Origin: Bacteroidota bacterium
GTDB taxonomy: Bacteria; Bacteroidota; Ignavibacteria; UBA10030; UBA6906
Reading direction: 5' to 3'
Assembly: GCA_019637975.1 (NCBI GenBank)
Contig: JAHBUR010000008.1
Location: 77,169 to 141,168, forward strand
Length of the DNA: 64,000 bases
A program made the translations under genes and the position numbers. This document shows, one piece after another, positions 1,860-19,354 of the stretch (the first letter of the stretch is position 1; each line of letters begins with the position of its first letter). The notes under the pieces are model-generated. The model was given only the letters and a program-made list of their open reading frames with translations. It had not been told where the DNA came from and did not search any database.

Positions 1860-2546
1860 TTACTCTGCGGTGATCAACTTGTACCCCTTGCCGTGAGTGT
1901 TCTTGATCTCGAGTGAGGGATCACCCGTAAGATACTTGCGGAGTTTTGAGATGAACACATCAAGGCTACGGCCGTTGAAGTACGTGTCGCTTCCCCAAAT
2001 CGTGTTCAGAATTGTGGAACGCTCGACTGTCGCGTTCCGATGCTGATAGAGTATTTGAAGAAGAAGCGACTCCGTTGAAGTGAGTTTCGTCTTCTTTTTT
2101 CCAAGAAGAAGAAGCTGCTTGTTTGCATCAAATGAGTACCTTCCGATGGGAATGGGTCCTGAAGCCCCCCTCAACGGTTTTCCTGTCCGCTTGAGAACTG
2201 CTTCAATCCTCAGCAATAATTCTTCCATGCTGAACGGTTTCGTAACATAATCGTCGCCGCCCGCTTTGAATCCTTGAACCCGGTCTTCTTTCATCGCCTT
2301 CGCCGTCAAAAAAATAACGGGCGTTTCCTCGTCCTTCATCCGCAACTCGCGCACGAATGTGAAGCCATCCCGCTTCGGCATCATCACATCGACAAGACAC
2401 AGATCGAAGCGCTCTGCGCTGAATTCTGCAAGCCCTTCGTCACCGTTGGCTTTCCGGATCACCGCAAAGCCGTGTGCCTCAAGATGTTCCTGAAGCATGA
2501 ATGCAAGATTGACGTCATCTTCGAGAAGAAGGATTCGCCGTTTCAT
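1860..2546 (-). CDS. OmpR-family two-component response regulator (receiver + winged-helix)
   Basis: Receiver motifs in MKRRILLLEDD...LCLVDVMMPKRDGF...LTAKA. C-terminal winged-helix LEIKNTHGKGYKL. Shares a 4-nt ATGA overlap with the upstream kinase. Confidence 0.9.
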   Translation of the reverse strand: MKRRILLLEDDVNLAFMLQEHLEAHGFAVIRKANGDEGLAEFSAERFDLCLVDVMMPKRDGFTFVRELRMKDEETPVIFLTAKAMKEDRVQGFKAGGDDYVTKPFSMEELLLRIEAVLKRTGKPLRGASGPIPIGRYSFDANKQLLLLGKKKTKLTSTESLLLQILYQHRNATVERSTILNTIWGSDTYFNGRSLDVFISKLRKYLTGDPSLEIKNTHGKGYKLITAE

Positions 2547-4237
2547 GATACAACCGGAAGTCGCAGTTCAACTGTCGTACCCGATCCCTTCTCGCTCTGA
2601 ATAGATGCCGTTCCGCCGTGCTTCTCCACAACCAGCTTCACATAACTCAATCCGATGCCGAAACCCTTGACGTCGTGCAGGTTACCTGTCGGGACACGAT
2701 AGTACTTTTCGAAAGCGCGTGCCGCGTGCTCTTGTGCCATTCCAATACCATGATCAATGACTCGAATAACGAGGTGATGCTCGCTGTTACCCGTCGTTAC
2801 AACAATGGTCGGAGCGTCGGACGAGTACTTCTCAGCGTTGTCGAGAACGTTTCTGATCACATTCTCAATGTGAACGCTGTCGCCAGCAACTATCGATCTT
2901 CGCGCATCGAGCAATGTTGTAAGCGTTCCGCCTCTCGTTGAGACCGGAACCGAAGCGGCCGCAACCGCTTTGTCGATGATTGCATGAACGTCAAGCAGCT
3001 CGCGGCGGAATTCCACCTCCCCCTCCTCCAGCGCCGCCATGTGCAGTATTTTCTCGATCTGTTTGCGCATCCGCGTGTTCTCGTCGGCAATCACGTTGTT
3101 GTACTCGGCGATCTTCTTCTTCATCCGGAGAACATCGGGGCGCCGCAACGCTTCGCTGGCGAGCGCGATGGTTGAAAGGGGTGTCTTGAACTCATGTGTC
3201 ATGTTGTTGATGAAGTCCGTCACGCGCTCGCCGAGTTCCTTCTGCCGCAACATCGTCCTCACGGTAAACCCGAAGCTTGCAAGCACAACGCCGACGAACA
3301 GAAGGTGCAACACCGATTCGGGTATGAACTCCTTCATCAATTGGGATTTGTAATCGGGAAACCGTACCATCAGCGTTGCCGGCATCCCGGAAAAATCGTG
3401 CGAGAAAACCGGCACCGTGAACGCCGACTCCCGCGCCATCGCCGCGTTGCCGGAAACGCGTCCCGCAACGAGACTATCCTTCTTGTCTCTCACCTCAAAC
3501 TCGTACGGAAAATCAATTCCCCCTTGTTGGAGAAACCGCGCAACAACGGAGTCAACCTGTTCATTGTTGATGCGCTCCGAAAGCGGCGGCGCCTCCTTCC
3601 CGGCAACAGTCTGCGTAATGCGACTGATGATTCTCTCTCCATCAATTTGTTTAGCAGGCATTTCAAACGATACGGCTCCTCCCGCGCCATCCCAACGGTA
3701 TGTCGAGAACAAACTGTCCGTCCGCACTTGAATGATGTACACGCCTTTCTTCATCTTCTCGCCCGGAAGCGTCAACTCATGTTTCCCCTCGCCCTTCTTT
3801 GCATCAACGAGAACGGTGTCTAACTTGCCGAACGGGTCGAACACCTTGACGGTAACTTTCTGCTGCGTGCCGAGTTGGTACGAGAGCTTGTCGCCAACGA
3901 GTGCTGTTGACGAGCCTCCCCCCGTCGTAAACGCCGACACCATAACGGTTTGGCCGGAGTCCCTTTTGAGAACGCGCTTCTTTGTGTCGGAGTATGAGAA
4001 CGTCATCGGGCGATGGCCGGTGGAATCGGATACAAAAAGGAGAAACCGGTCGCGGGCATCAGCTTCTTCGATGACGGCAACGGCGGCGTTGAGTGCAGCA
4101 AGAACATTCTGGCGGAAGGTCTGATCTTTCAACTCGAGCGAGCGTTGGAGAAATCTGTACTGAAGGAACAGAATTCCGCCCAACGCGACTGCCATCCCCG
4201 CAACGAGAATGCCGATTGTTTGCTTCGAGAGCTTCAT
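2543..4237 (-). CDS. sensor histidine kinase with large periplasmic domain
   Basis: H-box HEFKTPLSTI. HATPase motifs DHGIGM and GFGIGLS. N-terminal TM, ~300-aa periplasmic segment, second TM. Start placed at the internal ATG (MKLSKQTIGILVAG); the longest ORF reaches 4303. Confidence 0.85.
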   Translation of the reverse strand: MKLSKQTIGILVAGMAVALGGILFLQYRFLQRSLELKDQTFRQNVLAALNAAVAVIEEADARDRFLLFVSDSTGHRPMTFSYSDTKKRVLKRDSGQTVMVSAFTTGGGSSTALVGDKLSYQLGTQQKVTVKVFDPFGKLDTVLVDAKKGEGKHELTLPGEKMKKGVYIIQVRTDSLFSTYRWDGAGGAVSFEMPAKQIDGERIISRITQTVAGKEAPPLSERINNEQVDSVVARFLQQGGIDFPYEFEVRDKKDSLVAGRVSGNAAMARESAFTVPVFSHDFSGMPATLMVRFPDYKSQLMKEFIPESVLHLLFVGVVLASFGFTVRTMLRQKELGERVTDFINNMTHEFKTPLSTIALASEALRRPDVLRMKKKIAEYNNVIADENTRMRKQIEKILHMAALEEGEVEFRRELLDVHAIIDKAVAAASVPVSTRGGTLTTLLDARRSIVAGDSVHIENVIRNVLDNAEKYSSDAPTIVVTTGNSEHHLVIRVIDHGIGMAQEHAARAFEKYYRVPTGNLHDVKGFGIGLSYVKLVVEKHGGTASIQSEKGSGTTVELRLPVVS

Positions 4238-4406
4238 GTTCGAATATACGAACCTCTTTCGTCCCCTTCTACTCTCTCCTCCGCTCTTTACAAATCTTAA
4301 CACTTCCTCACAAACGTTAACTTGGCGGCTTGCATCTTTTTCTGCAACTTAGCGTTCGAAGAACCGTTCGTCGAATCCATCACATCCTACAGATTGGAGT
4401 TTTACT

Positions 4407-5126
4407 ATGCGCGTGCTACTTCTGCTTCTTGCGTTGACTCATCTTGCCATCTTCGTTTCTCCCGCAGCCCAAAACTGGAGCGGGCAGGGAGAAAAGAAGA
4501 TGATCAGATTTGAAGCAAAGACAACAGTGATCATTCCTGAGATTGGCGCAGTCATTATGGAGGAGAATGGAAAACTCACCGTCGGCACAACCCTCCCGAT
4601 ACAATCATCCGACAAGTCTTCAACCTTCGATATCACGAAAGGAGATGAGGTCGGAATGATCAATGGTAAACGCGTTGGAACGATTGCGGAACTGCGTGAG
4701 AGTTTCGAACAGGCTGCAATTGGCAGCGAGGTAAAACTCGGCTTGCGCAGAGAGGGACGACCGCATATTGTGACGTTTGTGAAGAAAGATCCGAAGGAGG
4801 GTTCTCAGAAGATGATTATCAGGAAAAGCGACGGGGCTTCCGGCGATGAGGACGTTCTTCCCGCTCTCGGCATTATTGTCCGGAAGCAAAAGGATAATGT
4901 GGTCGTTGCAGAGATACTTGACGAAACATCAGGGCTGTTCAAATCGGGGGATGTTATCACATCACTCAACGGAAAACGGATTGCTTCTGTGCAGGAATTC
5001 TCTTCAACGTTCGATGCCACCGCCGTTGGGGGCGAGTTACGCTTCGAGCTTGTTCGGGACGGCAAAGCCGTGTCTTTCACGATGAAGCGCCCCGAGCCGC
5101 GTGGAAACGTCATCATCAAGAAGTAA
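4407..5126 (+). CDS. secreted protein with two PDZ domains and no protease domain
   Basis: Signal peptide MRVLLLLLALTHLAIFVSPAA. Two PDZ-like segments (GDEVGMINGKRVGTIAELRE; GDVITSLNGKRIASVQEF). 239 aa. Confidence 0.6.
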   Translation: MRVLLLLLALTHLAIFVSPAAQNWSGQGEKKMIRFEAKTTVIIPEIGAVIMEENGKLTVGTTLPIQSSDKSSTFDITKGDEVGMINGKRVGTIAELRESFEQAAIGSEVKLGLRREGRPHIVTFVKKDPKEGSQKMIIRKSDGASGDEDVLPALGIIVRKQKDNVVVAEILDETSGLFKSGDVITSLNGKRIASVQEFSSTFDATAVGGELRFELVRDGKAVSFTMKRPEPRGNVIIKK

Positions 5127-5134
5127 AAACAGAC

Positions 5135-6622
5135 ATGCTGAAGATTCTTGTTTTCATAGCATCAATAGTTCTGATATATCCGCAAGCCGAAGCACAATAC
5201 AACAGCTTCAATCAGCGCGACGATAAGTACAGGCTTCTTGGCCTGAAGCGGGCGAAGGAGTATTTTGAAGTCCAACGCAAAGAGTACGAGAGGCAGCAAG
5301 AGTTGTTTCGCAAAGGACTCATCTCGCAAGTTGAGCTTGACCGCGTGAAGAATTCCTTCGCCGATGCCGAGGTGAACTACCAGCAATCGCTGCTTGCTGT
5401 ACTGTTCGAGCAGCAGTATGTTTCCATTGACAAAGCCGTGAAGTATCAAGCAGCAGACGGAACGAAGCGCGTCCGCCTGACGGTTGCGAATGCGTCGGGG
5501 GCGACGGAGGAGTTTCAGAAACTTCTCGGACTCGACGACCCGCTGTTCCGCTCTCTCCAACCCGACATGATTCACAACGTGTACATCTCTCTCTACAACA
5601 ATGACGGGGCAATCATCTCGCAACCGTATGAAGCGAAGATCGAGCAGTTACGGTCGGGACAGCCAAAGCGGGCGGACTTCGGGTTGTTGCAGGATCTCGA
5701 TGCCGTTACCGTGAACATCATCTACGGCAACGGCACAAGCCGCACGCTGAAGATTCTGCTGCAAAAGGACAACACCGCAAACAAAGTGATTGTGCAGTCA
5801 CAACAATTCTCGCAGGAAGTCGAACTCGGAAAATCCGCAACATTCGATTTGCGGCTCGAGCTGTTCAGCGGCATCGACAACACCTTCAGCCTTGAAGTGA
5901 TCAATCTCCCCCAACAAATCAACAGATTTTTCAAGGATGTGGGAAGCCAGGCCCGGCTGAGTCAAATCAAGTTCACGGAAAACGTCAATGCCCGGCAGGC
6001 GGGATTGGAAGTTTCACTGCCTGATCGCCCGAACGAACGCGTGCCGATGGATACAGCCATACCTTTCTATGTTCTCGTTATCCCGGCGGACAAAGTTAGA
6101 GAAGTGAGAAAAGCGGGAGAGAAAGAATGGACGGAAGAAGAAATCAAAGATCTGAATGTCGGATACGTTCGCCTCGAACTTATGCCCCGAGGAAGAGGGC
6201 GCATTCTTGTCCGTGCCCCGCAACTCTATCACACCATCAAACCCGACGGGCAGATGGAGATGACGGTTGATGTTGTAAACGAGGGAACGCGGCGTCTCGA
6301 CAATCTCAAAATTGACGTCGATCTACCGCTGAATTGGTCGAAAACGATCGACCCAGCAGTGATTCCGATGCTCGACATCAACGAAGAAAGGAGAATCGCG
6401 CTGACGGCTGTCCCGCCGTCGGGAATTTCCGTCGGTCGATACGACATTCGTCTGCGCACAAGCGCATTGTCCGACAATCAACCGGTGAATGCAGAGGACA
6501 AGATTGTAACAGTTGAAGTGACAGCCGACGCAAGTGTGTTCGGAACGTTGGTACTCGTTCTGCTGATTCTTGGTTTGGTGGGCGGCATCGTCGCCTTCGG
6601 AATTCGATTATCACGCAAGTAG
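5135..6622 (+). CDS. exported, C-terminally membrane-anchored protein with NEW3/CARDB-like beta-sandwich domain (COG1470-like)
   Basis: N-terminal signal peptide, coiled-coil N-region, C-terminal TM helix (LVLVLLILGLVGGIVAF). The segment MTVDVVNEGTRRLDNLKIDVDLPLNWS...GISVGRYDIRLRTSA fits the NEW3/CARDB pattern. Begins 9 nt after the PDZ gene. Confidence 0.5.
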   Translation: MLKILVFIASIVLIYPQAEAQYNSFNQRDDKYRLLGLKRAKEYFEVQRKEYERQQELFRKGLISQVELDRVKNSFADAEVNYQQSLLAVLFEQQYVSIDKAVKYQAADGTKRVRLTVANASGATEEFQKLLGLDDPLFRSLQPDMIHNVYISLYNNDGAIISQPYEAKIEQLRSGQPKRADFGLLQDLDAVTVNIIYGNGTSRTLKILLQKDNTANKVIVQSQQFSQEVELGKSATFDLRLELFSGIDNTFSLEVINLPQQINRFFKDVGSQARLSQIKFTENVNARQAGLEVSLPDRPNERVPMDTAIPFYVLVIPADKVREVRKAGEKEWTEEEIKDLNVGYVRLELMPRGRGRILVRAPQLYHTIKPDGQMEMTVDVVNEGTRRLDNLKIDVDLPLNWSKTIDPAVIPMLDINEERRIALTAVPPSGISVGRYDIRLRTSALSDNQPVNAEDKIVTVEVTADASVFGTLVLVLLILGLVGGIVAFGIRLSRK

Positions 6623-6646
6623 CTATCAATCTTACAAGGACAACTC

Positions 6647-7378
6647 ATGCAACAGAATCCTCTCTTTGAAGCTGCCAATCTCACAAAACAATATGAAGAC
6701 GGCGTGCTTGCGCTCGACAACGTTACGTTCTCTGTACATTCCGGGGAGATTTTTACAATCCTCGGCGCAAACGGCGCGGGTAAAACAACGACAATCAACA
6801 TCTTTCTCAACTTCATCGAGCCGACGTCCGGTGAAGCAAAGATCAACGGTATCGTTACACACACAAAGCCGCTCGAAGCGAAGAAGCATGTCTCGTACGT
6901 TTCCGAAAATGTGATGCTGTACCAGGATTTTAGCGCAATACAAAACCTCGATTTCTTCGCCCGTCTTGGAGGCAAGACACACTACAAAAAGGATGAATAC
7001 CGGACTGTGTTGCGCCGTGTCGGGCTGCAGGACGAGGCGCACGACAAAAAGCTGAAGGGGTTTTCGAAAGGCATGAGACAGAAATGCGGAATCGCAATAG
7101 CGATTCTCAAGGATGCGCCTGCGATTGTGCTCGACGAACCGACATCGGGCCTCGATCCGCAGGCCGCATATGAGTTTCAGCGATTGCTCGAATCGCTGAA
7201 AGCTGAAGGCCGGGCAATACTTATGTCAACACACGATATTTTTCGCGCGAAGGAAGTCGCTGACACTATCGGTATTATGAACCGCGGCCGACTTGTGATG
7301 CAGGAGTCCGCTCAGGCACTTGCCGGACAAGATCTTGAAAAAGTATATATGCGTTACATCGAAGGCCGTCAGGCTTAG
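6647..7378 (+). CDS. ABC transporter ATP-binding protein
   Basis: Walker A GANGAGKTTT, Walker B IVLDEPTSGLD, H-loop STHD. The signature motif is atypical (FSKGMRQK instead of LSGGQ). Confidence 0.9.
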   Translation: MQQNPLFEAANLTKQYEDGVLALDNVTFSVHSGEIFTILGANGAGKTTTINIFLNFIEPTSGEAKINGIVTHTKPLEAKKHVSYVSENVMLYQDFSAIQNLDFFARLGGKTHYKKDEYRTVLRRVGLQDEAHDKKLKGFSKGMRQKCGIAIAILKDAPAIVLDEPTSGLDPQAAYEFQRLLESLKAEGRAILMSTHDIFRAKEVADTIGIMNRGRLVMQESAQALAGQDLEKVYMRYIEGRQA

Positions 7379-7393
7379 CCCGGAGATCGAACC

Positions 7394-8806
7394 ATGACAA
7401 GACTTATCCTCTTCAAAGAACTCCGGGAGATTGTCGCCTCATCGAAGTTTGCCGTGACATTCGGCGTCTGTTCGTTACTGATTCTTCTTTCATTCTATGT
7501 CGGGGCGAAAAACTGGCAAATCGGGAACGAGCAATACGAAGCATCGAAGCGTGAGAACCTGCGGGCGATGGAAACGATGACGGATTGGTCGGAAGTCCGC
7601 AATCACCGGATCTTTCTTCCGCCGCGCCCGATCGCATCGCTCGTGAACGGCGTGTCGAACGACATTGGACGGACGGCGGAGATTCGCGGGAGCGGCGACA
7701 TCGCCGCGCAAGACAGCCGCTACGGCGAAGACCCGATCTATGCCGTTTTCCGATTCCTCGATCTCGATTTCATCATACAGATAGTACTGTCACTGTTCGC
7801 CATTCTGTTCGCTTATGATTCGATAAATGGAGAAAAGGAACGCGGCACGCTCCGGCTTACGTTTGCCAATCCCATCCCGCGCACGTCGTACATACTGGGC
7901 AAGATGGCAGGATCGGTCTTGGGACTCGCCGTGCCGTTGCTGATTCCGATACTGCTCGGATGTCTCATTCTGATTGCTGCCGGCATTCCAATGCAATGGG
8001 GTGACTGGGTGCGGCTTTCGTTGGTAATCGCAGCAGGATATCTGTATTTCAGCGTCTTTCTTGCAGTATCCATGTTTGTCTCCGCTGCGACGCAGAAGTC
8101 ATCGACGTCATTTCTCATGCTGCTCGTCATCTGGATTTTTTCCGTGATGATACTTCCCCGAACCGCTGTGCTGCTTGCGGGCCGTGCAGTTGACGTGCCG
8201 AGCGTCGACGAAATCGCGTCAAAGCGTTCGCGCTACTCGGCATCATTGTGGCAGGAACAACGGAAGGCAATGGCAGACTTCCGCGCTCCTGAAAATCTCC
8301 CTCCGGAAGAGATGATGAAGGAGTTTCAGAAATTCATGTCAAACCTCGGCTCCGCGCGTGATAAGAACATGCAGGAGTTTGCTTCACGATTGAATGAAGA
8401 GAGAAAGAACCGCCAGCAGGTGCAGGAACGGCTTGCGTTCGGACTTGCGCGTGTATCGCCGTCGGCAGTATTTTCGTTCGCAAGCACAACCGTTGCAGGA
8501 ACCGGACTTCATTTGAAAGACGAATACAAACTCCAGGCGGAACGCTACCAGCAGGCATTTGCGGAGTTTATCAAGGGCAAGACAGGCACATCGCCGAGTG
8601 GCGCGTTTATCTTCCGCATTACTACCGATACCCAGGAGGAGAAGAAGCCGATCAATCCGGCCGAGCTTCCGGTCTTTGCATTTCAACCGCCCTCGCTTTC
8701 TGCTTCGATGCGGAGCATTGCCGTCGATCTCGGTATTCTGATCCTGTTTTGCCTGATATTCTTCGCCGGCGCGTTTATCTCGTTTCTCCGTTACGATGTA
8801 CGATAG
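7394..8806 (+). CDS. ABC-2 family permease with ~190-aa cytoplasmic insertion before last TM (DUF3526-like)
   Basis: N-terminal TM, periplasmic loop, 4 clustered TMs, long coiled-coil soluble segment, C-terminal TM. Paralogous to the next gene: shared MxxLxLFKELR N-termini, ERGTL and FLRYDVR motifs. Confidence 0.7.
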   Translation: MTRLILFKELREIVASSKFAVTFGVCSLLILLSFYVGAKNWQIGNEQYEASKRENLRAMETMTDWSEVRNHRIFLPPRPIASLVNGVSNDIGRTAEIRGSGDIAAQDSRYGEDPIYAVFRFLDLDFIIQIVLSLFAILFAYDSINGEKERGTLRLTFANPIPRTSYILGKMAGSVLGLAVPLLIPILLGCLILIAAGIPMQWGDWVRLSLVIAAGYLYFSVFLAVSMFVSAATQKSSTSFLMLLVIWIFSVMILPRTAVLLAGRAVDVPSVDEIASKRSRYSASLWQEQRKAMADFRAPENLPPEEMMKEFQKFMSNLGSARDKNMQEFASRLNEERKNRQQVQERLAFGLARVSPSAVFSFASTTVAGTGLHLKDEYKLQAERYQQAFAEFIKGKTGTSPSGAFIFRITTDTQEEKKPINPAELPVFAFQPPSLSASMRSIAVDLGILILFCLIFFAGAFISFLRYDVR

Positions 8807-8861
8807 ATGTTTGAACCGTAACTGTAATCTGTAATCCGGAAATCACAAACACGGTCTTATC

Positions 8862-10337
8862 ATGTTCATCACATTGCTGCTCAAAGAACTCCGCTCCATC
8901 CTTCTCAGTCCGAAATTCACGACAACATTTGCTGTAGTCTCCATACTTCTGTTGCTGAGCGTGTATGTCGGAATTCAGGAATTTCATTCATACACCCGGC
9001 AGTATCATGCCGCCAACGAGCTGGTCCGCCAGGAGATGAGGGAAGCAAGAGGGTGGATGCAGTTGAACACCCGCGTGTACCGCGAACCCGACCCGATGCA
9101 GATCTTCGTCTCGGGCGTCCACAACGATGTGGGGCGTGTCTCGGGCATTACCAACTGGCAACCGGTGAAACTTGTCAACAGCACGTACAGCGACGACCCG
9201 ATCTTTGCATTCTTCCGCTTCATTGATTTCACGTTTATCGTTCAGGTTGTCTTGACGCTGTTCGCAATCCTCTTTACGTACGATGCCGTGAACGGAGAAC
9301 GTGAACGCGGCACGTTGCAGCTTCTCCTCTCGAATGCCGTCCCTCGGGCAAGTCTTGTTATAGCAAAATTCGCCGGTACATGGTTTGGACTCGTATTACC
9401 GCTGGCGATTCCCGTGCTCATCAGTCTTCTCCTCCTTCCGTTGTTGGGCATACCGATGACAAGCGACCATTGGCTGAGACTCGGATTGCTTCTCGGGGCA
9501 TCGCTGCTTCTGTTTACGTTCTTCATGGCATTCGGCGTCCTGGTCTCATTGTTGACGAGAAGGTCGAGCGTGTCGTTCCTCTTCTGTCTTGTTGCGTGGG
9601 TTTCAGGCGTCTTGATCATCCCGCGCGCTGCGGTGATGCTCGCAGGCCGGATTGTGCAGGTTCCGACAGTAGCGGAAGTCGAGGCGCGCCAGGACAGCTA
9701 TGCGAAGGATCAATGGAGCGTTCACATGAAGGAGCTGGGGGAAGAATGGCGGAAGCGCAACACATGGTTGCAGCAGTTTCCCGAAAACGAACGTTCCACA
9801 AAGAGAGAGGAAATGGAATGGGAATGGGCCGAACAGGATGACGGCAGCCGCAAACTTGTACAAAACGCCATCGACGAAAATGCCCGCATCTTAAAAGAAG
9901 AACTCCGCAACAGAAAACATGAACAAGAACGTCTCGCGTTTATGCTGTCGCGATTCTCGCCCGTCTCGGCATTCCAGTTAGCAGTCATGAATCTTGCCGA
10001 AACCGATATCACGCTGAAAGCGCGCTACGAGGACGCTTTGAACATCTACCGGACTGCCTTCAACCGGTACAAACAGCAGAAGCAGAAGGAGTCGGGCGAC
10101 TCGGGAGGTATCAGGATTTCCGTCGACAGCGAGCGGGGGGTCAAGATCGATACGGGACGGGAGATCGCGCTCGACCTCAGCGGCATTCCGGAGTTCACCC
10201 GGGAGCGTGCATCAATCAGTTCTGTGCTTGCACGAAGCATCGTGGATTTCGGTTTACTGAGTCTATTCTCTCTGATTGCTTTCGCCGCGGCGTTCGTTAT
10301 GTTCCTCAGGTACGATGTGCGTTACTCGGCTGGATGA
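8862..10337 (+). CDS. ABC-2 family permease, paralog of preceding gene
   Basis: Same architecture and conserved blocks as 7394..8806 (DPIFAFFRFIDFTFIVQVVLTLFAILFTYDAVNGERERGTLQL; C-terminal FLRYDVR). Confidence 0.7.
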   Translation: MFITLLLKELRSILLSPKFTTTFAVVSILLLLSVYVGIQEFHSYTRQYHAANELVRQEMREARGWMQLNTRVYREPDPMQIFVSGVHNDVGRVSGITNWQPVKLVNSTYSDDPIFAFFRFIDFTFIVQVVLTLFAILFTYDAVNGERERGTLQLLLSNAVPRASLVIAKFAGTWFGLVLPLAIPVLISLLLLPLLGIPMTSDHWLRLGLLLGASLLLFTFFMAFGVLVSLLTRRSSVSFLFCLVAWVSGVLIIPRAAVMLAGRIVQVPTVAEVEARQDSYAKDQWSVHMKELGEEWRKRNTWLQQFPENERSTKREEMEWEWAEQDDGSRKLVQNAIDENARILKEELRNRKHEQERLAFMLSRFSPVSAFQLAVMNLAETDITLKARYEDALNIYRTAFNRYKQQKQKESGDSGGIRISVDSERGVKIDTGREIALDLSGIPEFTRERASISSVLARSIVDFGLLSLFSLIAFAAAFVMFLRYDVRYSAG

Positions 10338-10409
10338 AGTCTGGAATTCCGCTGCAACCTTTTGTATCTTTGCAGAGGCAAACCGGGCAACGTCTTCTTC
10401 TCTATACAC

Positions 10410-11096
10410 ATGCCGCGAGCAAAAGAACTCTCATTTCATGCAAGCGAATCATCGGGACGCGTCAGCGCATTGCTGCTGAAGCCGAAGAATGCAACCTGTC
10501 TTCTTCTCTTCGCCCACGGCGCGGGAGCGGATATGCGGCACCATTTCATGGAAAACGCGTCGCAGGAACTTGCCCGGAACGGCATCGCAACTCTTCGCTA
10601 CAATTTCCCTTTCACCGAGAAAGGCTCGAGGCGTCCCGACCCGAAACCCGTTCTTCTGGCAACAGTCCGCTCCGCCGTCGCGCTTGCCGGCAGCATCGCT
10701 GAAGGACTCCCGATCTTTGCGGGAGGCAAATCGATGGGAGGGAGAATGACATCGCTTGCCGCATCCGAAGAGCCGCTTCCGCGGGTGAACGGACTTATCT
10801 TCTTCGGTTTCCCGTTGCATCCAGCCGGAGAACCATCCACCGAAAGGGCACAACATCTCTCAAACGTCAAACTGCCGATGTTGTTCTTGCAGGGAACGCG
10901 TGATGCGCTCGCCGATCTTGGCTTGCTGAAACCCGTCTGCAAGAAATTGGGCAAACGCGCAACGTTGTTTGTTATTGAAGAAGCAGATCATTCATTTCAT
11001 GTGCCGAAGCGAACGGGCAGAAGCGATGAGGATGTTTTGACTGAACTCGCCCGAACCTTCACCGAATGGTCTTCTGAACTAATTTCTCCACGATGA
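10410..11096 (+). CDS. alpha/beta-fold hydrolase (COG3571-like predicted esterase)
   Basis: Nucleophile elbow GGKSMGG and an HGAGAD motif. Start placed at the internal ATG (MPRAKELSF); the longest ORF starts at 10362. Confidence 0.7.
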   Translation: MPRAKELSFHASESSGRVSALLLKPKNATCLLLFAHGAGADMRHHFMENASQELARNGIATLRYNFPFTEKGSRRPDPKPVLLATVRSAVALAGSIAEGLPIFAGGKSMGGRMTSLAASEEPLPRVNGLIFFGFPLHPAGEPSTERAQHLSNVKLPMLFLQGTRDALADLGLLKPVCKKLGKRATLFVIEEADHSFHVPKRTGRSDEDVLTELARTFTEWSSELISPR

Positions 11097-11995
11097 ACTT
11101 CCTTCTCATCGCTTTTTGTCTTACCGCCGGATGGCTCCTTCAGCGTTCGCGTATTCTTCCGAAAGATGCGCACAGGGGAATCAACATTTGGATTCTCTAC
11201 ATCGCCTTGCCTTCTGTCGCTCTGTTCTATGTGCCGGCAATAACCTGGACGTCGGAGCTCATCATCCCTGTAACGATGCCGTTCATCGTCTGGGCCGGCG
11301 CGTGGGCTGCGATAACACTCGCTGCACGCCGGTTCGCAATCGACAGGATGACTCAATCGGCGTTGTTGCTCACAGCAGGTTTGGGCAACACGTCGTTCCT
11401 CGGTTTTCCTCTCACACAGGCGTACTTCGGCGAAGAGGGGTTGCGGATAGCTGTCATATGTGATCAACTCTCCTTTGTCGTTCTCTCAACGCTGGGCGTC
11501 ATGACGGCGATTCACGCTTCATCCGATGGAAAAGCGAACATCACGAAGATTGCCGGAAACGTCTTCCGGTTTCCACCTTTTCTCGCTTTTGTTGCTGCTA
11601 TTCTCCTGCCACCGTTCGTAAATCTTCAATTGTTCAATCCGTTGTTCGAGAAGTTGTCGGATACACTTATCCCTCTCGCCCTTTTCTCGGTGGGGTTGCA
11701 GGTCCGGTTTTCTGAAATGAAAAGCGATGCGCGCAACCTTGCGCTGGGGCTTGCCTCCAAGCTGATACTTGCGCCAGCTCTTGTGCTTCTCGTCGCGCTA
11801 CTTGTCCAAGCGAAGGGGGTGATTCCGCAAACAAGCGTATTCGAAGCTGCGACGGCGCCGATGATCACCTCTGCAATTCTCGCGGCGGAGTACCGGCTCA
11901 ATCCCCGCCTGTCGAACTTGATGGTGAGCATTGGAGTCCCGCTCTCGCTTGTCACAACGGCGCTTTGGTGGTTCGTCGTAACCCGAGTGCTGTAG
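11093..11995 (+). CDS. AEC (auxin efflux carrier) family permease
   Basis: About 10 TM helices, 300 aa, and an AEC/malate-permease-like N-terminus (MNFLLIAFCLTAGWLLQRSRILPKD). Overlaps the previous stop by 4 nt. Confidence 0.8.
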   Translation: MNFLLIAFCLTAGWLLQRSRILPKDAHRGINIWILYIALPSVALFYVPAITWTSELIIPVTMPFIVWAGAWAAITLAARRFAIDRMTQSALLLTAGLGNTSFLGFPLTQAYFGEEGLRIAVICDQLSFVVLSTLGVMTAIHASSDGKANITKIAGNVFRFPPFLAFVAAILLPPFVNLQLFNPLFEKLSDTLIPLALFSVGLQVRFSEMKSDARNLALGLASKLILAPALVLLVALLVQAKGVIPQTSVFEAATAPMITSAILAAEYRLNPRLSNLMVSIGVPLSLVTTALWWFVVTRVL

Positions 11996-12038: not shown

Positions 12039-12923
12039 ATGAAACATTACCGCATTCTACCGGCACATCAAAGCCTCGTTGTTCTTCTCCTTCTGTTCAT
12101 CGCTTCATCATCTTTCTCTCAGGTCAGCATCATTGACGATTTGCAGCGAACCGTTATTCTTCGCTCGCCTGCACAACGCATCGTTTCGCTTGCACCGAGC
12201 ATCACCGAGACACTGTTTGCAGTCGGCGCAGGAGATCAGATCGTGGGGGTAACAGACTACTGCAACTATCCGGCAGAGGCAAAGACGAAACAGCGTGTCG
12301 GCGGCGTCATCAATCCCAACATCGAAACCATCATCAGTCTGAAGCCGGATTTGATTGTGCTGAGCATGGAAGGAAATGTGAGAGAGGATTTCAACAAACT
12401 GACGGGTTTCGGCATTCCTGTGTTTGTGACGAACCCGCGTTCCCTCGACGGCATCTACACATCCATCTCTCAACTCGGAACACTAACCGGACGCGCGGCG
12501 CAAGCGATGACGGTTGTCCATTCGCTGAAGACACGCGCAGACTCGATCGTTCTCGCGGCATCGGCATCGAAAAGGCATACAGTGCTGCTGTTTGTTTCTC
12601 TTCAGCCGGTCATCGTTGTCGGGCAAGGGACGTTTCTGGCAGAACTGATCTCGCTTGCGGGAGGAGTGAACACTGCTGCGAAAGCTTCGTCAACCTATCC
12701 GGCGTACAGCCGTGAAGCCGTATTGAAGGACAATCCCGATGTACTTATTTTTCTGTCGGATGTTCTTTCCGATCCTGCCGGCCTCATTCACCTGTACCCC
12801 GAATGGTCAACATTGAACGCATACCGGCAGAAGAAGATTTTCAGGATTGATTCAGATATTGTATCGCGTCCCGGTCCCCGCGCAATCGAGGGACTTGAGG
12901 CGCTGCACAAACTTATCCACTAA
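12039..12923 (+). CDS. periplasmic ABC substrate-binding protein, BtuF/FecB cobalamin-siderophore class
   Basis: Signal peptide. Hallmark motif RIVSLAPSITETLFAVGAGDQIVGVTDYCNYP of BtuF-like binding proteins. No cognate permease or ATPase lies adjacent. Confidence 0.8.
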   Translation: MKHYRILPAHQSLVVLLLLFIASSSFSQVSIIDDLQRTVILRSPAQRIVSLAPSITETLFAVGAGDQIVGVTDYCNYPAEAKTKQRVGGVINPNIETIISLKPDLIVLSMEGNVREDFNKLTGFGIPVFVTNPRSLDGIYTSISQLGTLTGRAAQAMTVVHSLKTRADSIVLAASASKRHTVLLFVSLQPVIVVGQGTFLAELISLAGGVNTAAKASSTYPAYSREAVLKDNPDVLIFLSDVLSDPAGLIHLYPEWSTLNAYRQKKIFRIDSDIVSRPGPRAIEGLEALHKLIH

Positions 12924-12931
12924 GGACACGA

Positions 12932-13621
12932 ATGAACACGAAGAAAAGACCAGTAAAAGCAAACCGCGGAAAGTCAGGGGGAAAACGTCGCGTAACGAAA
13001 AGATCGAGGAGGAAGGTCTTCATCGCAGTCGCTGGCAACATCGGCGCCGGCAAATCGTCGCTGACGAATCTGCTGAGCTTGCGCTACGGATGGAAGCCGT
13101 TCTTTGAATCGGTCGAGGATAATCCGTACCTCAGCGACTTCTATGCCGACATGAAGCGCTGGTCGTTCAACCTGCAAGTCTATTTTCTCTCCAACCGTTT
13201 CCGCAGTCACAAGGCGATCACCGAGGGGCCGGAGTCGGTAATACTCGACAGGGTGATTTACGAAGATGCCGAGATTTTTGCGCGCAACCTCTATGAGATC
13301 GGCAACATGGAACGCCGCGACTACGAGAACTACGTTGCGCTGTATGAAGTGATGACAGAGTACCTCCGCCCGCCGGACTTGCTGATTTACCTGCGCGCCA
13401 ATGTTGACACGTTAGTCAAGCAAATCTCGCTACGCGGCCGGGACTTCGAGCAGTCCATCAAGAAGGAATACCTCGAACAACTCAACAAGCACTACGAGTC
13501 CTGGATTGCCCGCTACAAAAAAGGCCCGCTGCTCGTCGTCGAATCCGACGAGCTGGATTTTGTGAACAAGCAGGAAGATTTAGAACGGTTGGTGAGGATG
13601 ATTGAGAGGAAGTTGGGGTAA
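12932..13621 (+). CDS. deoxynucleoside kinase (dCK/dGK family)
   Basis: P-loop IAVAGNIGAGKSSL. dNK motifs (FESVEDNPYL; DRVIYEDAEIFARN; LIYLRANVDT). Confidence 0.85.
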   Translation: MNTKKRPVKANRGKSGGKRRVTKRSRRKVFIAVAGNIGAGKSSLTNLLSLRYGWKPFFESVEDNPYLSDFYADMKRWSFNLQVYFLSNRFRSHKAITEGPESVILDRVIYEDAEIFARNLYEIGNMERRDYENYVALYEVMTEYLRPPDLLIYLRANVDTLVKQISLRGRDFEQSIKKEYLEQLNKHYESWIARYKKGPLLVVESDELDFVNKQEDLERLVRMIERKLG

Positions 13622-13676
13622 TCATTTCCAAATGAAGTTGGTTTTGGATTGTTTGCAAACGAAACAAGAACCCAAA

Positions 13677-14135
13677 ATGGAATGCCTTATGAAACTTACA
13701 AAAGCTGATGTCGCTAAGTCGGGTCTAGTACCTGGTCTGCGAAAGCTCATTGGAGATTGGCAGCCAACCGAGTTTGATAGTGAACTCAAGTATCGAGACT
13801 CTCTCCTTGCCTACATTCGTGAAGCTGTCCCCAGCGATTGCTCAGTCGAAAAGGAGTACCGACATACAGGCACCACAACTGACATCTGTGTGAAGTGGTC
13901 TGGAATGCTCTTCAAGGGTGAGGCGTTCATTGAGGTGAAGAGAAACTTGGACAAGAAACCAACTTTGGATCGCTTGATCGGGCAGCTGGAGGCTCTGCAA
14001 CCTGGCAAACGCGGAATTTTGGTTGTTTTGGTGGGCAGAACTGATGAAGCCATGCTTGGACGACTGAAAGAAAAATACAGGCGTTACTTTGACGAGTTCC
14101 AGTTTGAGCAACCCTTGGCAATTATTGTCAAGTAG
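13677..14135 (+). CDS. hypothetical protein, candidate PD-(D/E)XK nuclease fold, in a low-GC patch
   Basis: Intact 152-aa ORF. GC and codon usage visibly differ from neighbours, with TTG/AAA-rich codons. Contains E...TTDICVK...IEVKRN, an E/D/ExK-like spacing. Start chosen at the ATG giving MECLMKLTK; alternatives are 13632 and 13689. Confidence 0.4.
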   Translation: MECLMKLTKADVAKSGLVPGLRKLIGDWQPTEFDSELKYRDSLLAYIREAVPSDCSVEKEYRHTGTTTDICVKWSGMLFKGEAFIEVKRNLDKKPTLDRLIGQLEALQPGKRGILVVLVGRTDEAMLGRLKEKYRRYFDEFQFEQPLAIIVK

Positions 14136-17672: not shown

Positions 17673-19322
17673 TTAGCCCTTTATCTTGTGGGGATTCGCT
17701 TTGCCATTCTTCAGCAACGCAAGAGCGACATCAAGCTGGTTATCGCCATTCAGCGAAGCGGCAATTCTTCCTGTCTCGCCTTTGACGCGTGCCATCATTT
17801 CGATATTCAATTCCCGTTTGATGTGATCGCTGTAGCGGTCGAATCCGCGGTTCTTTTCTTTCTCGAGTGCGGCGGAAAGAAGATCGAGATCGGCGAGAAC
17901 TTCCTTGCTGTAATGCGACCGTTCGGCAATCTGCCGCAGCTCGTTCACTTTGCCGTCGCTCTCTTCCTTGTAGTCGAACTTCTGATCCTCGAGGTACTTG
18001 CGGAATTCCTTCAGCACAGTCTCGTTGACGCCCGTGAACTCCGCGGTCTTGCGGGCAGAGAAATACGTGTTGGCAAACCGGAAGAACAACGACTTCCGGA
18101 ACAACTCCCTCACCATCGGGCCGGGATCCGTTTCGGTGACGGAGGAATCGGGAGTAATGCCGCCGTATTCGTAGACAGTTCTTCCACCTTTCGTCTTGAA
18201 GGCACGTTTCAGGCTGTCGGGAACGGTGGCAAACACGCCGTTCCGATCTTTGTGCATGTAGTCGATTTCCTGAATACTCCTGCCGCTCGGAATGTAGTAG
18301 CGTGCCGTCGTGACCTTCAGTTGCGCCCCGTAATTCAGCGGCACAATTGTCTGAACCAGCCCCTTGCCGAAGCTTCGGGAGCCCACGACAATTCCCCGGT
18401 CAAGGTCCTGAATTGCGCCGGCCACAATTTCGCTTGCGCTCGCGCTGCTGCGATTGGTCAGCACAACCACCGGTACGTCCGGTAACTGCGGCTCTTCCAC
18501 CGAGTTGTATTGTTTCTCCGATTCAGGGCGGCGGCCCTTGGTGCTGACAATCAGATTTCCCTTCGGCACAAATTTGCTGACAACATCAACGGCGGCATCA
18601 AGCAAACCGCCGGGATTGCCGCGCAAGTCGAGGACCATACCTCGAATCTCCCCTTTCAGTTTCAGCTCTTTCAGCGATTGCCGGAGTTCATCGCCGGCCT
18701 TTCGGGAGAATCGCTCAAGCCGTACGTACGCGATGCCGTCGCCGACAAAATCCGCGTACGTCACATTCTTGACTCTGATATCTTCCCGCACGACAACAAA
18801 CAAAACCGGCTTGTTCTCGCCTTCACGCTGGATGAGGATTTTCACTTCCGTGCCCGGCTCACCGCGCATGTACGAGCGGACTTCGTTTGAGTTCTTATCC
18901 GCCACTTTGTCGCCGTCGATCTCGATGATTTTATCGCCGGGAATGATCCCTGCGCGCTGCGCCGCGTGTCCGTCCATCACGCTGATCACCTGAACAGAAC
19001 CGTCGCGTGCCCCGATTGTGACGCCGATACCCCCGTAGCGGCCGTTCGTCAGCATCTCGACTTCATCACCATCCTCCTTGTCGATGAACACGGTGTAGGG
19101 ATCGAGCGTGCCGAGCATCCCTTTGATGCCCGCTTGCATGAACTTCTCGGGATCCACTTCATCCACGTAGTTGAGAGAGATTTCCTTGTAGACGCGTCCG
19201 AAGACGTCGATTCCTTTGTTGATTTTGAAGAAGAAATCGGTATCCACCGGCGGGCCGAACCCGACGGAAAGAACAACCACGCCGATGATTGCTGCTGCAA
19301 ACAGGAAATACTTCTTTCGCTT
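17673..19322 (-). CDS. ctpA: S41 family C-terminal processing peptidase with PDZ domain
   Basis: N-terminal TM, PDZ (GGIGVTIGARDGSVQVISVMDGHAAQRAGIIPGDKI), S41 catalytic region (LVVLTNRSSASASEIVAGAIQD). Start at the ATG preceded by GAGGAGAG. Confidence 0.9.
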   Translation of the reverse strand, partial: KRKKYFLFAAAIIGVVVLSVGFGPPVDTDFFFKINKGIDVFGRVYKEISLNYVDEVDPEKFMQAGIKGMLGTLDPYTVFIDKEDGDEVEMLTNGRYGGIGVTIGARDGSVQVISVMDGHAAQRAGIIPGDKIIEIDGDKVADKNSNEVRSYMRGEPGTEVKILIQREGENKPVLFVVVREDIRVKNVTYADFVGDGIAYVRLERFSRKAGDELRQSLKELKLKGEIRGMVLDLRGNPGGLLDAAVDVVSKFVPKGNLIVSTKGRRPESEKQYNSVEEPQLPDVPVVVLTNRSSASASEIVAGAIQDLDRGIVVGSRSFGKGLVQTIVPLNYGAQLKVTTARYYIPSGRSIQEIDYMHKDRNGVFATVPDSLKRAFKTKGGRTVYEYGGITPDSSVTETDPGPMVRELFRKSLFFRFANTYFSARKTAEFTGVNETVLKEFRKYLEDQKFDYKEESDGKVNELRQIAERSHYSKEVLADLDLLSAALEKEKNRGFDRYSDHIKRELNIEMMARVKGETGRIAASLNGDNQLDVALALLKNGKANPHKIKG

Positions 19323-19354
19323 CATATATCTCTCCTCGTTATAGAAATGCAATT

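Follow-up and report, generated by a model that had tools for sequence, protein, structure and literature searches.

A conserved seven-gene module in which a two-component system accompanies a predicted type V ABC transporter operon and a NEW3 protein resembling a periplasmic adaptor

The stretch of DNA analyzed here (henceforth the window, 64 kb in length) carries between positions 4407 and 10337 five ORFs, all on the plus strand, coding for proteins of 239, 495, 243, 470 and 491 aa, and beside them a divergently oriented pair of genes (1860-4237, minus strand) for a response regulator (RR) and a sensor histidine kinase (HK). The features of the locus are:

1860..2546, minus strand: OmpR-family response regulator, RprY-like (Pfam Response_reg and Trans_reg_C)
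2543..4237, minus strand: sensor histidine kinase (Pfam HisKA and HATPase_c) with a periplasmic sensor domain of ~280 aa
4287..4322, plus strand: putative operator with four direct repeats, TTTACA-N4-TTAACA-N5-TCACA-N4-TTAACT, period 10-11 bp
4407..5126, plus strand: secreted tandem-PDZ protein, 239 aa (Pfam PDZ_2 twice, E 1.1e-19)
5135..6622, plus strand: NEW3 protein, 495 aa, with a signal peptide, an alpha-hairpin, three beta-sandwiches and a C-terminal TM helix
5213..5407, plus strand: alpha-helical hairpin of the NEW3 protein, residues 27-91 (AF2 model)
5291..5326, plus strand: hairpin tip motif R53-x3-L57-x6-S64
6647..7378, plus strand: ABC ATPase of the DrrA/ABCA-like subfamily, 243 aa (Pfam ABC_tran, E 5.7e-28)
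7061..7075, plus strand: ATPase signature FSKGM, residues 139-143
7394..8806, plus strand: permease A, ABC-2 (type V), 470 aa, six TM helices (PF12679 and PF12040)
8177..8728, plus strand: all-helical periplasmic insert of permease A with DUF3526, residues 262-445, 184 aa
8862..10337, plus strand: permease B, ABC-2 (type V), 491 aa (PF12679 and PF12040)
9624..10250, plus strand: periplasmic helical insert of permease B, residues 255-463, 209 aa

The five plus-strand genes are separated by only 8, 24, 15 and 55 nt, a tight spacing that bears out the first-pass annotation in reading them as one operon with a single transcript; of the gaps that it listed, only the first, given as 9 nt, needs correction. 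The conservation of the gene neighborhood, proposed there as a check, extends further than the operon: the order RR(-) HK(-) / PDZ NEW3 ATPase PermA PermB(+) is repeated in ~80 loci from MAGs of Ignavibacteriota, Zixibacteria, KSB1, Calditrichia and Zhuqueibacterota, and its recurrence across several phyla places the five-gene arrangement far above chance. Of the 80 loci, nearly all of those with enough upstream flank also have the RR-HK pair in synteny with the operon. The conserved unit is seven genes, namely the divergent RR/HK pair and the five-gene ABC operon, and not the five alone. The previously claimed co-occurrence of the NEW3 protein with ABC-2 transporters turns out to be obligate, with its gene being accompanied by ABC-2/DUF3526 permease genes in every clade sampled. 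In a few loci, those of the KSB1 type, genes for an S41 peptidase and a beta-lactamase-family hydrolase are inserted in the operon.

The response regulator has RprY as its best NCBIfam match (285 bits, E 2.8e-85, under the equivalog cut-off of 370), and its orthologs in the syntenic loci share 51-64% identity. The kinase ORF extends to a GTG at 4303, and tblastn alignments with its orthologs begin at query residues 18-23; given that the homologs begin at M23, the start is likely to be the ATG at 4237. Beyond its catalytic domains it shows a weak match to a Por_Secre_tail-like beta-sandwich (Pfam, ORF residues 146-197). The four direct repeats between the divergent promoters are presumed to be the site for two response-regulator dimers. 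They match 21 of the 23 specified positions of the consensus TTAACAN4TTAACAN5TAACAN4TTAACT and are its sole match in the window, where none is expected. The motif recurs in 50/50 comparable intergenic regions with a mean score of 22.2/23 (top shuffled score 16), keeps a fixed spacing to the start of the kinase gene (36-49 nt in 43 of these loci), and is followed 9-10 nt downstream by a promoter-like block in 25 of the 50, as opposed to 1.2% of shuffles. A receiver fused to a winged helix and tandem direct repeats spaced by ~10-11 bp are typical of the OmpR/PhoB type, the binding itself being a prediction. The two-component sensor probably switches on the ABC-2 transporter.

The first gene of the operon encodes a protein with an N-terminal signal peptide visible in its sequence, and with partial NCBIfam matches to the PDZ regions of DegQ/DegP; it lacks a protease domain. 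In most FCB-clade loci the NEW3 gene is preceded by that of a PDZ homolog, with only 23-47% identity, which several loci lack. The tandem-PDZ protein is plausibly a periplasmic accessory that binds peptide C-termini.

In the 495-aa protein the NPCBM_assoc/NEW3 domain (PF10633; residues 369-442, E 1.5e-11, 44.8 bits against a threshold of 24.4) is the last of three beta-sandwich domains, and it was recovered in all 29 family members tested. The AF2 model comprises a signal peptide, an N-terminal helical hairpin, the beta-sandwiches and a C-terminal TM helix, so that the signal peptide, CARDB/NEW3-like sandwich and C-terminal anchor of the earlier description are all present. The signal peptide is of the cleavable type, ending in AEA|Q, and the only anchor is the C-terminal helix (468-494), which is followed by the basic tail RLSRK. 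Together these features predict an anchor in the inner membrane and a periplasmic body, contrary to the designation 'anchored surface protein' in the first-pass annotation.

The tip of the hairpin bears the pattern RxxxLxxxxxxS, known as the RLS motif of the MacA, AcrA and MexA hairpin tips, where it binds TolC (PMC3391258). The full motif is found in 114/120 NEW3 proteins of the FCB clade, with R53 and L/M57 conserved in all 120 and S64 in 114. A profile of the hairpin searched against the PDB retrieved almost exclusively adaptors, aligned at their hairpin tips: TriAB (2.4e-5), 4l8j (1.1e-4), MexJ (1.2e-4) and MacA (4e-3), then AcrA, EmrA, ZneB and MexA; none of these matches is strong in itself (best E 2.4e-5, most 1e-3 to 0.3), and coiled coils are prone to spurious matches. 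Likewise, residues 32-113 weakly match the NCBIfam models CzcB, RND_mfp, DevB and EmrA. Periplasmic adaptors have a four-domain architecture that includes lipoyl, beta-barrel and membrane-proximal domains (PMC13328181). No HlyD_D23, Biotin_lipoyl_2, HlyD_3 or related Pfam match was obtained in the 495-aa protein at E-values up to 1, nor any lipoyl, beta-barrel or membrane-proximal Pfam domain in the 29 family members at E-values up to 0.1; in the model three Ig-like sandwiches take the place of these domains. The N-terminal lipid or TM anchor of the adaptor family is also missing from the NEW3 protein. We accordingly rejected its membership in the HlyD family as it is without the lipoyl, beta-barrel and membrane-proximal domains. 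The first-pass annotation had named assignment to a family such as the HlyD adaptors, along with permeases of a characterised exporter, as what would overturn its view, and this has come about by half: the family is wrong, but the hairpin is of the adaptor type, and the permeases resemble NosY and GldF at the superfamily level only. The protein thus looks like a previously undescribed periplasmic adaptor, in which a TolC-docking hairpin is borne on a stalk of three Ig-like domains. The extended form of this stalk is an assumption, as the inter-domain geometry of the AF2 model is uncertain (pTM 0.43).

The ATPase has intact Walker A (GANGAGKTT), Walker B with the catalytic Glu (VLDEPTSGLD), D-loop and H-loop (STHD) motifs. 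The PDB entries nearest to it are the NBDs of ABCA4, ABCA1 and ABCA3, with the signature LSGGMQRK, and then NosF; there are also partial NCBIfam matches to lantibiotic-protection and DrrA models. FSKGM indeed stands in place of LSGGQ, as noted before, but calling it degenerate was a mistake, since 99 of 101 orthologs carry [FY]SKGM. We predict that the enzyme is catalytically competent and that the variant signature is under selection.

Pfam confirms every domain assignment made earlier, with PF10633, PF12679 and PF12040 all being matched. For the two permeases, paralogs with ~40% identity, the scores of ABC2_membrane_2 (PF12679) are 113.7 and 97.8 bits (E 1e-32 and 9e-28; cut-off 27.2) and those of DUF3526 (PF12040) 31.2 and 38.8 bits (cut-off 25). 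They constitute two distinct orthologous groups, both kept in all complete loci, and the coupling-helix motif GE(K/R)ERGTL is invariant. The closest solved structure to permease A is NosY (phmmer 5.9e-8; Foldseek TM 0.76-0.79, NosY-normalised), followed in fold by ABCG and ABCA, and the six TM helices are those of a type V transporter. Its AF2 model (pTM 0.73) places insert helices at 271-294, 304-352, 356-368 and 372-397. The first-pass annotation had described insertions of ~190 aa before the last TM, and these are helical and lie between TM5 and TM6 as stated, with lengths of 184 and 209 aa; they are not cytoplasmic. Since the fold is of the NosY type, with the N-terminus and the coupling helix in the cytoplasm, inserts at this position are predicted to be periplasmic, a topology supported by hydropathy and charge analysis. 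Neither FtsX nor MacB_PCD was matched anywhere in the module in the Pfam and NCBIfam searches.

The distribution of outer-membrane factor genes differs between clades. There is no TolC-like gene within the window; in the FCB clade such a gene occurs within 10 kb in only 4/80 loci and is adjacent in none, and the operon also has no such gene beside it in a third clade, drawn from metagenomes of termite guts and digesters. Among more distant relatives (27-48% identity; Aminicenantes and others) a gene for an outer-membrane efflux protein (PF02321) adjoins the NEW3 gene in 8/8 informative loci looked up. In L082, L085, L086 and L127 it directly precedes the NEW3 gene; in L084 and L129 it precedes it at some distance, with a gap or one to two small genes intervening; and in L081 and L128 it is upstream but encoded on the other strand. 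In two additional loci, L111 and L112, it comes directly after the NEW3 gene. The eight loci continue with genes for an ATPase and 2-4 ABC-2/DUF3526 permeases, which a kinase and a sigma-54 regulator usually accompany. At the present locus the tandem-PDZ gene sits where the outer-membrane factor gene stands in those other clades. Coupling to an outer-membrane channel is therefore an extrapolation here, as TolC-like neighbors are absent from the window, the FCB clade and the third clade.

Synteny, operator conservation, the RLS hairpin, the PF02321 neighbors, the type V fold and the intact ATPase lead us to favor, with moderate confidence, an inducible envelope-spanning type V ABC pump under two-component regulation and with a non-canonical adaptor. 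In such a pump the kinase would sense a periplasmic signal via its large sensor domain, and the phosphorylated RprY-like regulator would engage the four TTAACA repeats of the divergent promoter region, thereby activating the PDZ-NEW3-ATPase-PermA-PermB operon and probably its own, a scheme which we infer from the arrangement above. Two copies of the ATPase and a PermA/PermB heterodimer would assemble into a type V (ABC-2, NosY-like) transporter, an assignment resting on the Pfam hits and the similarity to NosY, with the tall helical domain (DUF3526) of each permease reaching into the periplasm. The NEW3 protein would be held by its C-terminal helix in the inner membrane, with its three Ig-like domains leading to the RLS-tipped hairpin at the far end; the motif, the profile matches and the synteny elsewhere suggest that it could serve as a periplasmic adaptor (membrane fusion protein) that links the transporter with an outer-membrane channel of the TolC type, whose gene would in this lineage lie beyond the window. 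ATP hydrolysis would then drive a substrate that is periplasmic or embedded in a membrane out of the cell across the outer membrane. As concluded earlier, no particular substrate can be predicted. Standing against a pump is that tripartite assemblies are known only for type IV and type VII ABC transporters (review PMC8277102), and against the adaptor role that the domains with which canonical adaptors bind transporters (lipoyl, beta-barrel, membrane-proximal) are all missing from the NEW3 protein.

The module resembles the tripartite ABC pumps (MacA-MacB-TolC, HlyBD-TolC, DevBCA-HgdD) in combining an ABC transporter that has a large periplasmic domain with a membrane-anchored partner bearing RxxxLxxxxxxS at an alpha-hairpin tip, in the adjoining outer-membrane efflux protein gene of its distant relatives, and in a two-component control found in many efflux operons. 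It differs from them in that its transporter is of type V (ABC-2, NosY-like, heterodimeric) rather than MacB/FtsX type VII or type IV, in that no outer-membrane factor gene is present at this locus, and in the partner itself, which has none of the three adaptor domains, is anchored C-terminally instead of N-terminally, and forms a linear hairpin-Ig-Ig-Ig-TM chain in place of the canonical fold-back sickle. YbhGFSR of E. coli consists of a HlyD-family adaptor, an ATPase and two ABC-2 permeases. It similarly unites an ABC-2 permease heterodimer, an ATPase and a hairpin-bearing periplasmic partner in one operon, but YbhG is canonically HlyD-type, YbhS/YbhR lack the DUF3526 periplasmic insert, and there is neither a PDZ protein nor a dedicated two-component system of the present type; YbhFSR is mentioned in PMC8277102.

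NosDFY (PDB 7o0y and related entries) also has an ABC-2 core with a dedicated periplasmic partner, NosY being the closest solved permease by sequence and fold and NosF among the best bacterial ATPase matches. NosY, however, forms a homodimer and has no counterpart of the 184-209-aa helical insert, and NosD is a beta-helix, unlike the hairpin and Ig stalk seen here. Equating the module with NosDFY was rejected, as there is no NosD-like protein and no nosZ/nosL context, and the NosY match covers only TM2-TM5 (E 5.9e-8). GldAFG shares the PF12679 ABC-2 subfamily, the FCB group and a membrane-anchored periplasmic accessory protein, but was likewise rejected: the permeases score only 24.4 and 29.5 bits with the GldF model (TIGR03518) against 288.5, a likeness at the superfamily level, the ATPase scores 155 with GldA (TIGR03522) against 402.6, and no GldG-type protein is present.

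NosY serves a mechanotransducer that does not export, and the kinship with it also recommends a different reading, which we consider rather unlikely: a periplasmic mechanotransducer comparable to NosDFY, FtsEX or LolCDE and without an outer-membrane channel. ATP hydrolysis would move the DUF3526 helices and the bound NEW3 protein so as to do work inside the periplasm, where a periplasmic or membrane client would be extracted, handed over or activated. This client might be a peptide or protein captured by the PDZ protein, and the hairpin would attach to the coiled coils of the permeases or to some other partner in the periplasm. The lack of an outer-membrane factor gene at this locus and beside the operon in the FCB clade and clade 3, and the PDZ protein in the position held elsewhere by that factor, are consistent with such a device, and the S41 peptidase and beta-lactamase-family genes of the KSB1-type loci would fit periplasmic enzyme control, though these occur in few loci only. 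It leaves unexplained the conserved tip of TolC-binding type and the outer-membrane factor neighbor in 8/8 informative loci of other clades. Still less probable, in our estimate, is a resistance-and-sensing module like BceAB-RS/LanFEG-RK, in which an envelope-active peptide antibiotic would be removed or shielded at the inner membrane only, with no trans-envelope conduit, and transporter activity would feed the two-component system. The close linkage of a two-component system to an ABC transporter whose extracytoplasmic domains are large, the heterodimeric ABC-2 permeases recalling LanE/LanG, the capacity of PDZ domains to bind peptide C-termini, and the partial matches of the ATPase to lantibiotic-protection and DrrA models all suggest this comparison. 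Membership in that family was nevertheless rejected, since its permeases belong to a type other than FtsX/BceB and the kinase has its own ~280-aa periplasmic sensor domain, unlike the intramembrane-sensing BceS; furthermore, the MutG model reaches an E-value of only 0.76, and the high conservation of the NEW3 protein across phyla (59-83%) would be unusual for a resistance determinant.

Similarly improbable is the interpretation originally attached to the locus, that of an exporter or processor of a cell-surface substrate with a surface-anchored CARDB-like NEW3 protein and a partly degenerate ATPase. Its domain calls are correct, NEW3 and ABC-2 permease genes do occur together in every clade sampled, and the PDZ domains, with the peptidase genes of some loci, hint at the handling of proteins or peptides. 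Yet the predicted inner-membrane anchor and periplasmic body do not suit surface display, the ATPase has intact motifs and a conserved signature variant, the permease inserts are periplasmic, and the adaptor-type hairpin and regulatory pair are disregarded.

The regulator is nearest to RprY of the RprXY system of Bacteroides and Porphyromonas, a fellow member of the OmpR family; its score of 285 falls short of the equivalog value of 370, and the sensor domain is not recognisably that of RprX. No connection of RprXY to an ABC-2/NEW3 operon was found in the literature consulted. The divergent two-component system with its operator, the RLS hairpin and the TolC-like neighbor in distant relatives are all additions to the initial description of this locus.

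All five plus-strand open reading frames of the first-pass annotation were recovered at exactly the positions it had given, and its domain guess for each product was matched by Pfam; none of the five proteins reaches the level of an NCBIfam equivalog model. The spacings of 24, 15 and 55 nt likewise hold, with the first gap being 8 nt rather than the 9 nt originally counted. A protein record, KF749_06035, is present in the Bacteroidetes-labelled source MAG. The features of the region are:

2543-4237, minus strand, histidine kinase gene
4287-4322, putative operator TTTACAAATCTTAACACTTCCTCACAAACGTTAACT, with no other copy in the 64 kb (0 chance matches expected)
4407-5126, plus strand, PDZ gene (two PDZ_2 domains in Pfam)
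5135-6622, plus strand, NEW3 gene (NPCBM_assoc/NEW3 at residues 369-442 of 495 aa in Pfam)
6647-7378, plus strand, ATPase gene (ABC_tran in Pfam)
7394-8806, plus strand, PermA gene (ABC2_membrane_2 and DUF3526 in Pfam)
8862-10337, plus strand, PermB gene (ABC2_membrane_2 and DUF3526 in Pfam)

A scan for relatives of the NEW3 protein with one genome per species found 175, and the window proteins were run by tblastn against the best 80 of these loci, all from MAGs, which are labelled Ignavibacteriota, Bacteroidota, Zixibacteria, KSB1, Calditrichia, Zhuqueibacterota and others (hereafter the FCB clade). Minus-strand response regulator and histidine kinase genes, divergent from plus-strand PDZ, NEW3, ATPase, PermA and PermB genes in that order, were recovered in essentially all loci with sufficient flank, and this recurrence refutes a chance clustering of the genes. 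The five genes earlier proposed as a unit are thus real, but the conserved unit is larger and includes the two-component pair. The PDZ gene is missing in several of the loci compared.

Range of identity to the window protein across the 80 loci (tblastn)
NEW3 protein: 59-78%
ATPase: 63-78%
PermA: 48-71%
PermB: 47-68%
Response regulator: 51-64%
Histidine kinase: 25-52%
PDZ protein: 23-47%

Certain operons, which we term KSB1-type, carry two additional genes, namely one for a beta-lactamase-family serine hydrolase (PF00144, E 1e-55) between the PDZ and NEW3 genes, and one for an S41 peptidase (PF03572 and Peptidase_S41_N) between the ATPase and PermA genes. These inserted hydrolase/peptidase genes lie at 8327-9922 (plus strand) in comparison locus L053 and at 12555-14117 (plus strand) in L042, and similar gaps are seen in L052, L058, L062, L043 and L074; they hint at a peptide or cell-wall-related chemistry tied to the module. 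In the window itself, an alpha/beta-hydrolase gene (Abhydrolase_11, E 2e-52) begins 24 nt past PermB and is overlapped on the same strand by an AEC-family transporter gene (Mem_trans), the two spanning 10362-11995 (plus strand). They may be co-transcribed with the operon in the window, and show no conservation beside the module in the other loci.

The response regulator belongs to the OmpR family and is nearest to RprY (285 bits versus a cut-off of 370). Alignments of the kinase with its orthologs begin at residues 18-23 of the open reading frame, because of which the ATG at 4237 is probably its start. Within its periplasmic domain of approximately 280 aa no ligand-binding domain was recognized; residues 146-197 of the open reading frame give a weak match to a Por_Secre_tail/FlgD-Ig-like beta-sandwich (E 0.002). 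Between the kinase and PDZ genes, all 50 of 50 comparable intergenic regions contain a 36-nt element made up of four direct repeats, TTAACA-N4-TTAACA-N5-TAACA-N4-TTAACT, matching on average 22.2 of the 23 specified positions (minimum 18), where shuffled sequences peak at 16. In 43/50 loci the distance between the element and the kinase start is 36-49 nt, and in 25/50 a promoter-like block lies 9-10 nt downstream of the element, as against 1.2% of shuffles. Such an arrangement, with four half-sites at a helical period lying between divergent promoters, fits the expected target of an OmpR/PhoB-type regulator. Hence, the regulator presumably binds this element, and its control of the operon would follow from such binding. 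The RprY literature yielded neither a binding motif nor a link to an ABC operon. A further conserved block, CAATATAC(G) at 4241-4251, whose reverse complement GTATATTG is similar to TAnnTTG, is found no more than 25 nt from the kinase start codon in 33/50 loci versus 3.6% of shuffles; CAATATAC(G) may serve as a signal for translation initiation, or be a -7-type promoter element of a kinase/regulator transcript that is almost leaderless. A sigma-70 promoter scan gave no useful match, as expected in this lineage.

The AlphaFold2 model of the NEW3 protein (mean pLDDT 80, pTM 0.43) has a signal-peptide helix, a helical hairpin formed by residues 27-59 and 65-91, three beta-sandwich domains (approximately 96-208, 216-352 and 357-462), of which the last is the NEW3 domain, and a TM helix at 468-494 followed by RLSRK. 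The first-pass annotation had called it a surface protein; its signal peptide, C-terminal TM helix and terminal RLSRK point instead to an inner-membrane anchor, with a predicted periplasmic body. The tip of the hairpin reads R53-QQE-L57-FRKGLI-S64, i.e. RxxxLxxxxxxS, which is the RLS motif that constitutes the TolC-binding interface of MacA, AcrA and MexA, and which occurs in HlyD with Thr replacing Ser (PMC3391258). At the aligned columns the motif is present in 114/120 sequences of the FCB clade (R53 in 120/120, L/M57 in 120/120 and S64 in 114/120), 102/119 of the Aminicenantes-type set and 52/103 diverse representatives at 50% identity. A 75-column profile of the hairpin, run against all PDB sequences, matched near-exclusively periplasmic adaptor proteins at their hairpin tips, namely TriAB, 4l8j, MexJ, C. 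jejuni AcrA, MacA, a MexC-like protein, AcrA, EmrA, ZneB and MexA (E 2.4e-5 to 0.3), and in NCBIfam the same residues give weak CzcB, RND_mfp, DevB and EmrA matches. The remaining adaptor domains were undetected both in the NEW3 protein and in all 29 relatives examined; it is therefore, as judged from sequence, not a member of the HlyD family, yet it bears what looks to be the docking element of that family. The whole protein compared by sequence with PDB gave only noise, such as designed beta-trefoils. Foldseek with the model recovered, besides adaptor proteins reached via the hairpin in the fold searches, generic multi-Ig strings (integrin legs, macroglobulins and S-layer proteins) that are no guide to function.

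Close homologs of the NEW3 protein number more than 1,400, and its family, which reaches far past the FCB clade, has 502 representative clusters at a threshold of E<=1e-3 or 186 if this is set to E<=1e-30; the distant relatives share 24-48% identity and the same length and architecture. We sampled nine distant loci from Aminicenantes and related bacteria, of which the ninth is truncated by a contig end. In all eight informative loci a gene for a PF02321 outer-membrane efflux protein (henceforth outer-membrane factor) adjoins the NEW3 gene: six have it upstream in the same orientation, with nothing in between in L082, L085, L086 and L127 and with either a gap or one to two small genes intervening in L084 and L129, and the other two, L081 and L128, have it upstream on the opposite strand. 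It is directly downstream of the NEW3 gene in two further metagenomic loci, L111 and L112. An ABC ATPase gene and two to four ABC-2/DUF3526 permease genes come next in the distant loci, usually along with a kinase and a sigma-54-dependent regulator, which in the Aminicenantes-type versions stands in place of the OmpR-type. Such a layout bears the signature of a tripartite pump operon in which the NEW3 protein would hold the adaptor position. In a third clade, which a metagenome scan with a subclade alignment drew from termite-gut and digester samples, the NEW3, ATPase and permease genes occur without an adjacent outer-membrane factor gene. Just 4/80 loci of the FCB clade have an outer-membrane factor gene within 10 kb, and in none is it adjacent. 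No TolC-like gene was found in the 64-kb window with tblastn, a five-sequence HMM and Pfam on 10 of the 23 large downstream open reading frames, the remaining large ones being covered by tblastn and the HMM alone, with limited sensitivity. Together, these three observations limit how far the tripartite signature carries over to the window.

Among the distant loci, L081, L082, L084, L128 and L129 each have four ABC-2 permease genes or equivalents and L086 three, in comparison to two in the window module; in L128 two permease genes are apparently fused, with a 1004-aa product. L085 and L086 have a gene for a small STAS-domain protein after the NEW3 gene. A PDZ gene is also upstream of the NEW3 gene in L097 (6707-7879, plus strand), L107, L108, L113, L114 and L119, and such PDZ-bearing metagenomic loci outside the main FCB clade show 27-40% identity, indicating that the pairing is recurrent in more than one lineage.

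The nearest solved relative of PermA is NosY (phmmer 5.9e-8, over TM2-TM5), which Foldseek also recovers with a TM-score of 0.76-0.79 normalized to NosY, followed by ABCG and ABCA transporters, thereby placing the modelled PermA in the type V fold. Both permeases have six TM segments, of which TM2 and TM3 are joined by an invariant GE(K/R)ERGTL coupling region. This region and the N-terminal amphipathic helix are cytoplasmic in proteins with the type V fold; the 77-aa TM1-TM2 loop and the TM5-TM6 insert (184 aa in PermA and 209 aa in PermB) are accordingly periplasmic, reversing the cytoplasmic location initially given to the insertion of about 190 aa. The insert is all helical, with one helix in PermA being 49 residues long. 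The ATPase is most like the ABCA NBDs and NosF, and its Walker A, Walker B (including the catalytic Glu), D-loop and H-loop are all intact; a pseudo-ATPase was rejected on the conservation of its motifs. Its signature, previously described as degenerate, is [FY]SKGM in 99/101 orthologs across all clades; it shares the Met with the LSGGM of ABCA and retains the Ser and second Gly, and such conservation marks it as a family trait rather than decay. At residues ~85-87 'SEN' aligns with the Q-loop 'PQH' of ABCA4/ABCA1 NBD1, such that Glu apparently takes the place of the Q-loop Gln.

We tentatively propose, at a little short of an even chance for the reading as a whole, that the NEW3 family defines an unrecognized architectural class of trans-envelope pump. 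Its parts would be a heterodimeric type V ABC-2 transporter (four-permease in some clades) with periplasmic DUF3526 towers, a C-terminally anchored adaptor whose Ig-domain stalk bears a grafted adaptor-type TolC-docking hairpin, and an outer-membrane factor. In Ignavibacteriota, Zixibacteria and KSB1 the system would have been rewired, with the tandem-PDZ gene replacing the outer-membrane factor gene in the operon, and control passing to the RprY-like two-component system via the four-fold TTAACA operator. By the mechanism proposed for the window module, the kinase would sense a periplasmic signal, and the regulator on its four boxes would activate the operon, probably together with the genes of the two-component pair. 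We infer that (ATPase)2-PermA-PermB with its helical towers associates with the NEW3 protein, whose Ig stalk would position the RLS hairpin for docking to a TolC-family channel, so that a substrate would be expelled across the envelope. The evidence is computational: sequence and comparative analyses support the gene content, synteny, conservation of the operator and motifs, fold assignments and the outer-membrane factor synteny of other clades, whereas binding by the regulator, assembly of the complex, docking in the window, the direction of transport and the substrate are inferences. Foremost among the rival readings is a periplasmic mechanotransducer of the NosDFY/FtsEX kind, working without any outer-membrane channel. 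It is favored by the lack of an outer-membrane factor gene, by the PDZ gene occupying the position of that gene, and by the S41-peptidase and beta-lactamase-family genes within the KSB1-type operons.

The module is akin in logic to MacAB-TolC and YbhGFSR, and its transporter is akin in fold to NosY; membership in the NosDFY, GldAFG and BceAB systems was rejected as the defining features of each fail. The tripartite pumps described to date combine RND, MFS, or type IV or VII ABC transporters with four-domain adaptors that have an N-terminal anchor, the ABC partners being type IV and type VII only (PMC8277102, PMC13328181). The candidate NEW3 adaptor matches none of the adaptor classes in these reviews, and literature searches on DUF3526, the NEW3 domain in connection with ABC transporters, COG1470 and PF10633/PF12679 turned up no paper describing the system. 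If the proposed pump is real, a type V ABC-2 transporter with an Ig-stalk adaptor would be a new solution to spanning the periplasm, the TolC-docking hairpin would be a portable module, and the DUF3526 and COG1470/NEW3 membrane proteins, which are widely distributed among uncultured bacteria of the FCB group and Aminicenantes, would gain their first functional context. The conserved operator and sensor would offer a ready regulatory handle toward the inducing signal and substrate.

Scans for tRNAs and Rfam families detected none in the whole 64 kb. Other content of the window includes:

17673-19358, minus strand, CtpB-like S41 peptidase that itself contains a PDZ domain
21836-24415, minus strand, TPR-CHAT protein
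25922-27256, minus strand, 444-aa open reading frame with no Pfam match at E 1e-5
33973-41774, ATP synthase alpha-subunit gene and a partial cell-division/cell-wall cluster (ftsZ, ftsA and a Mur ligase gene)
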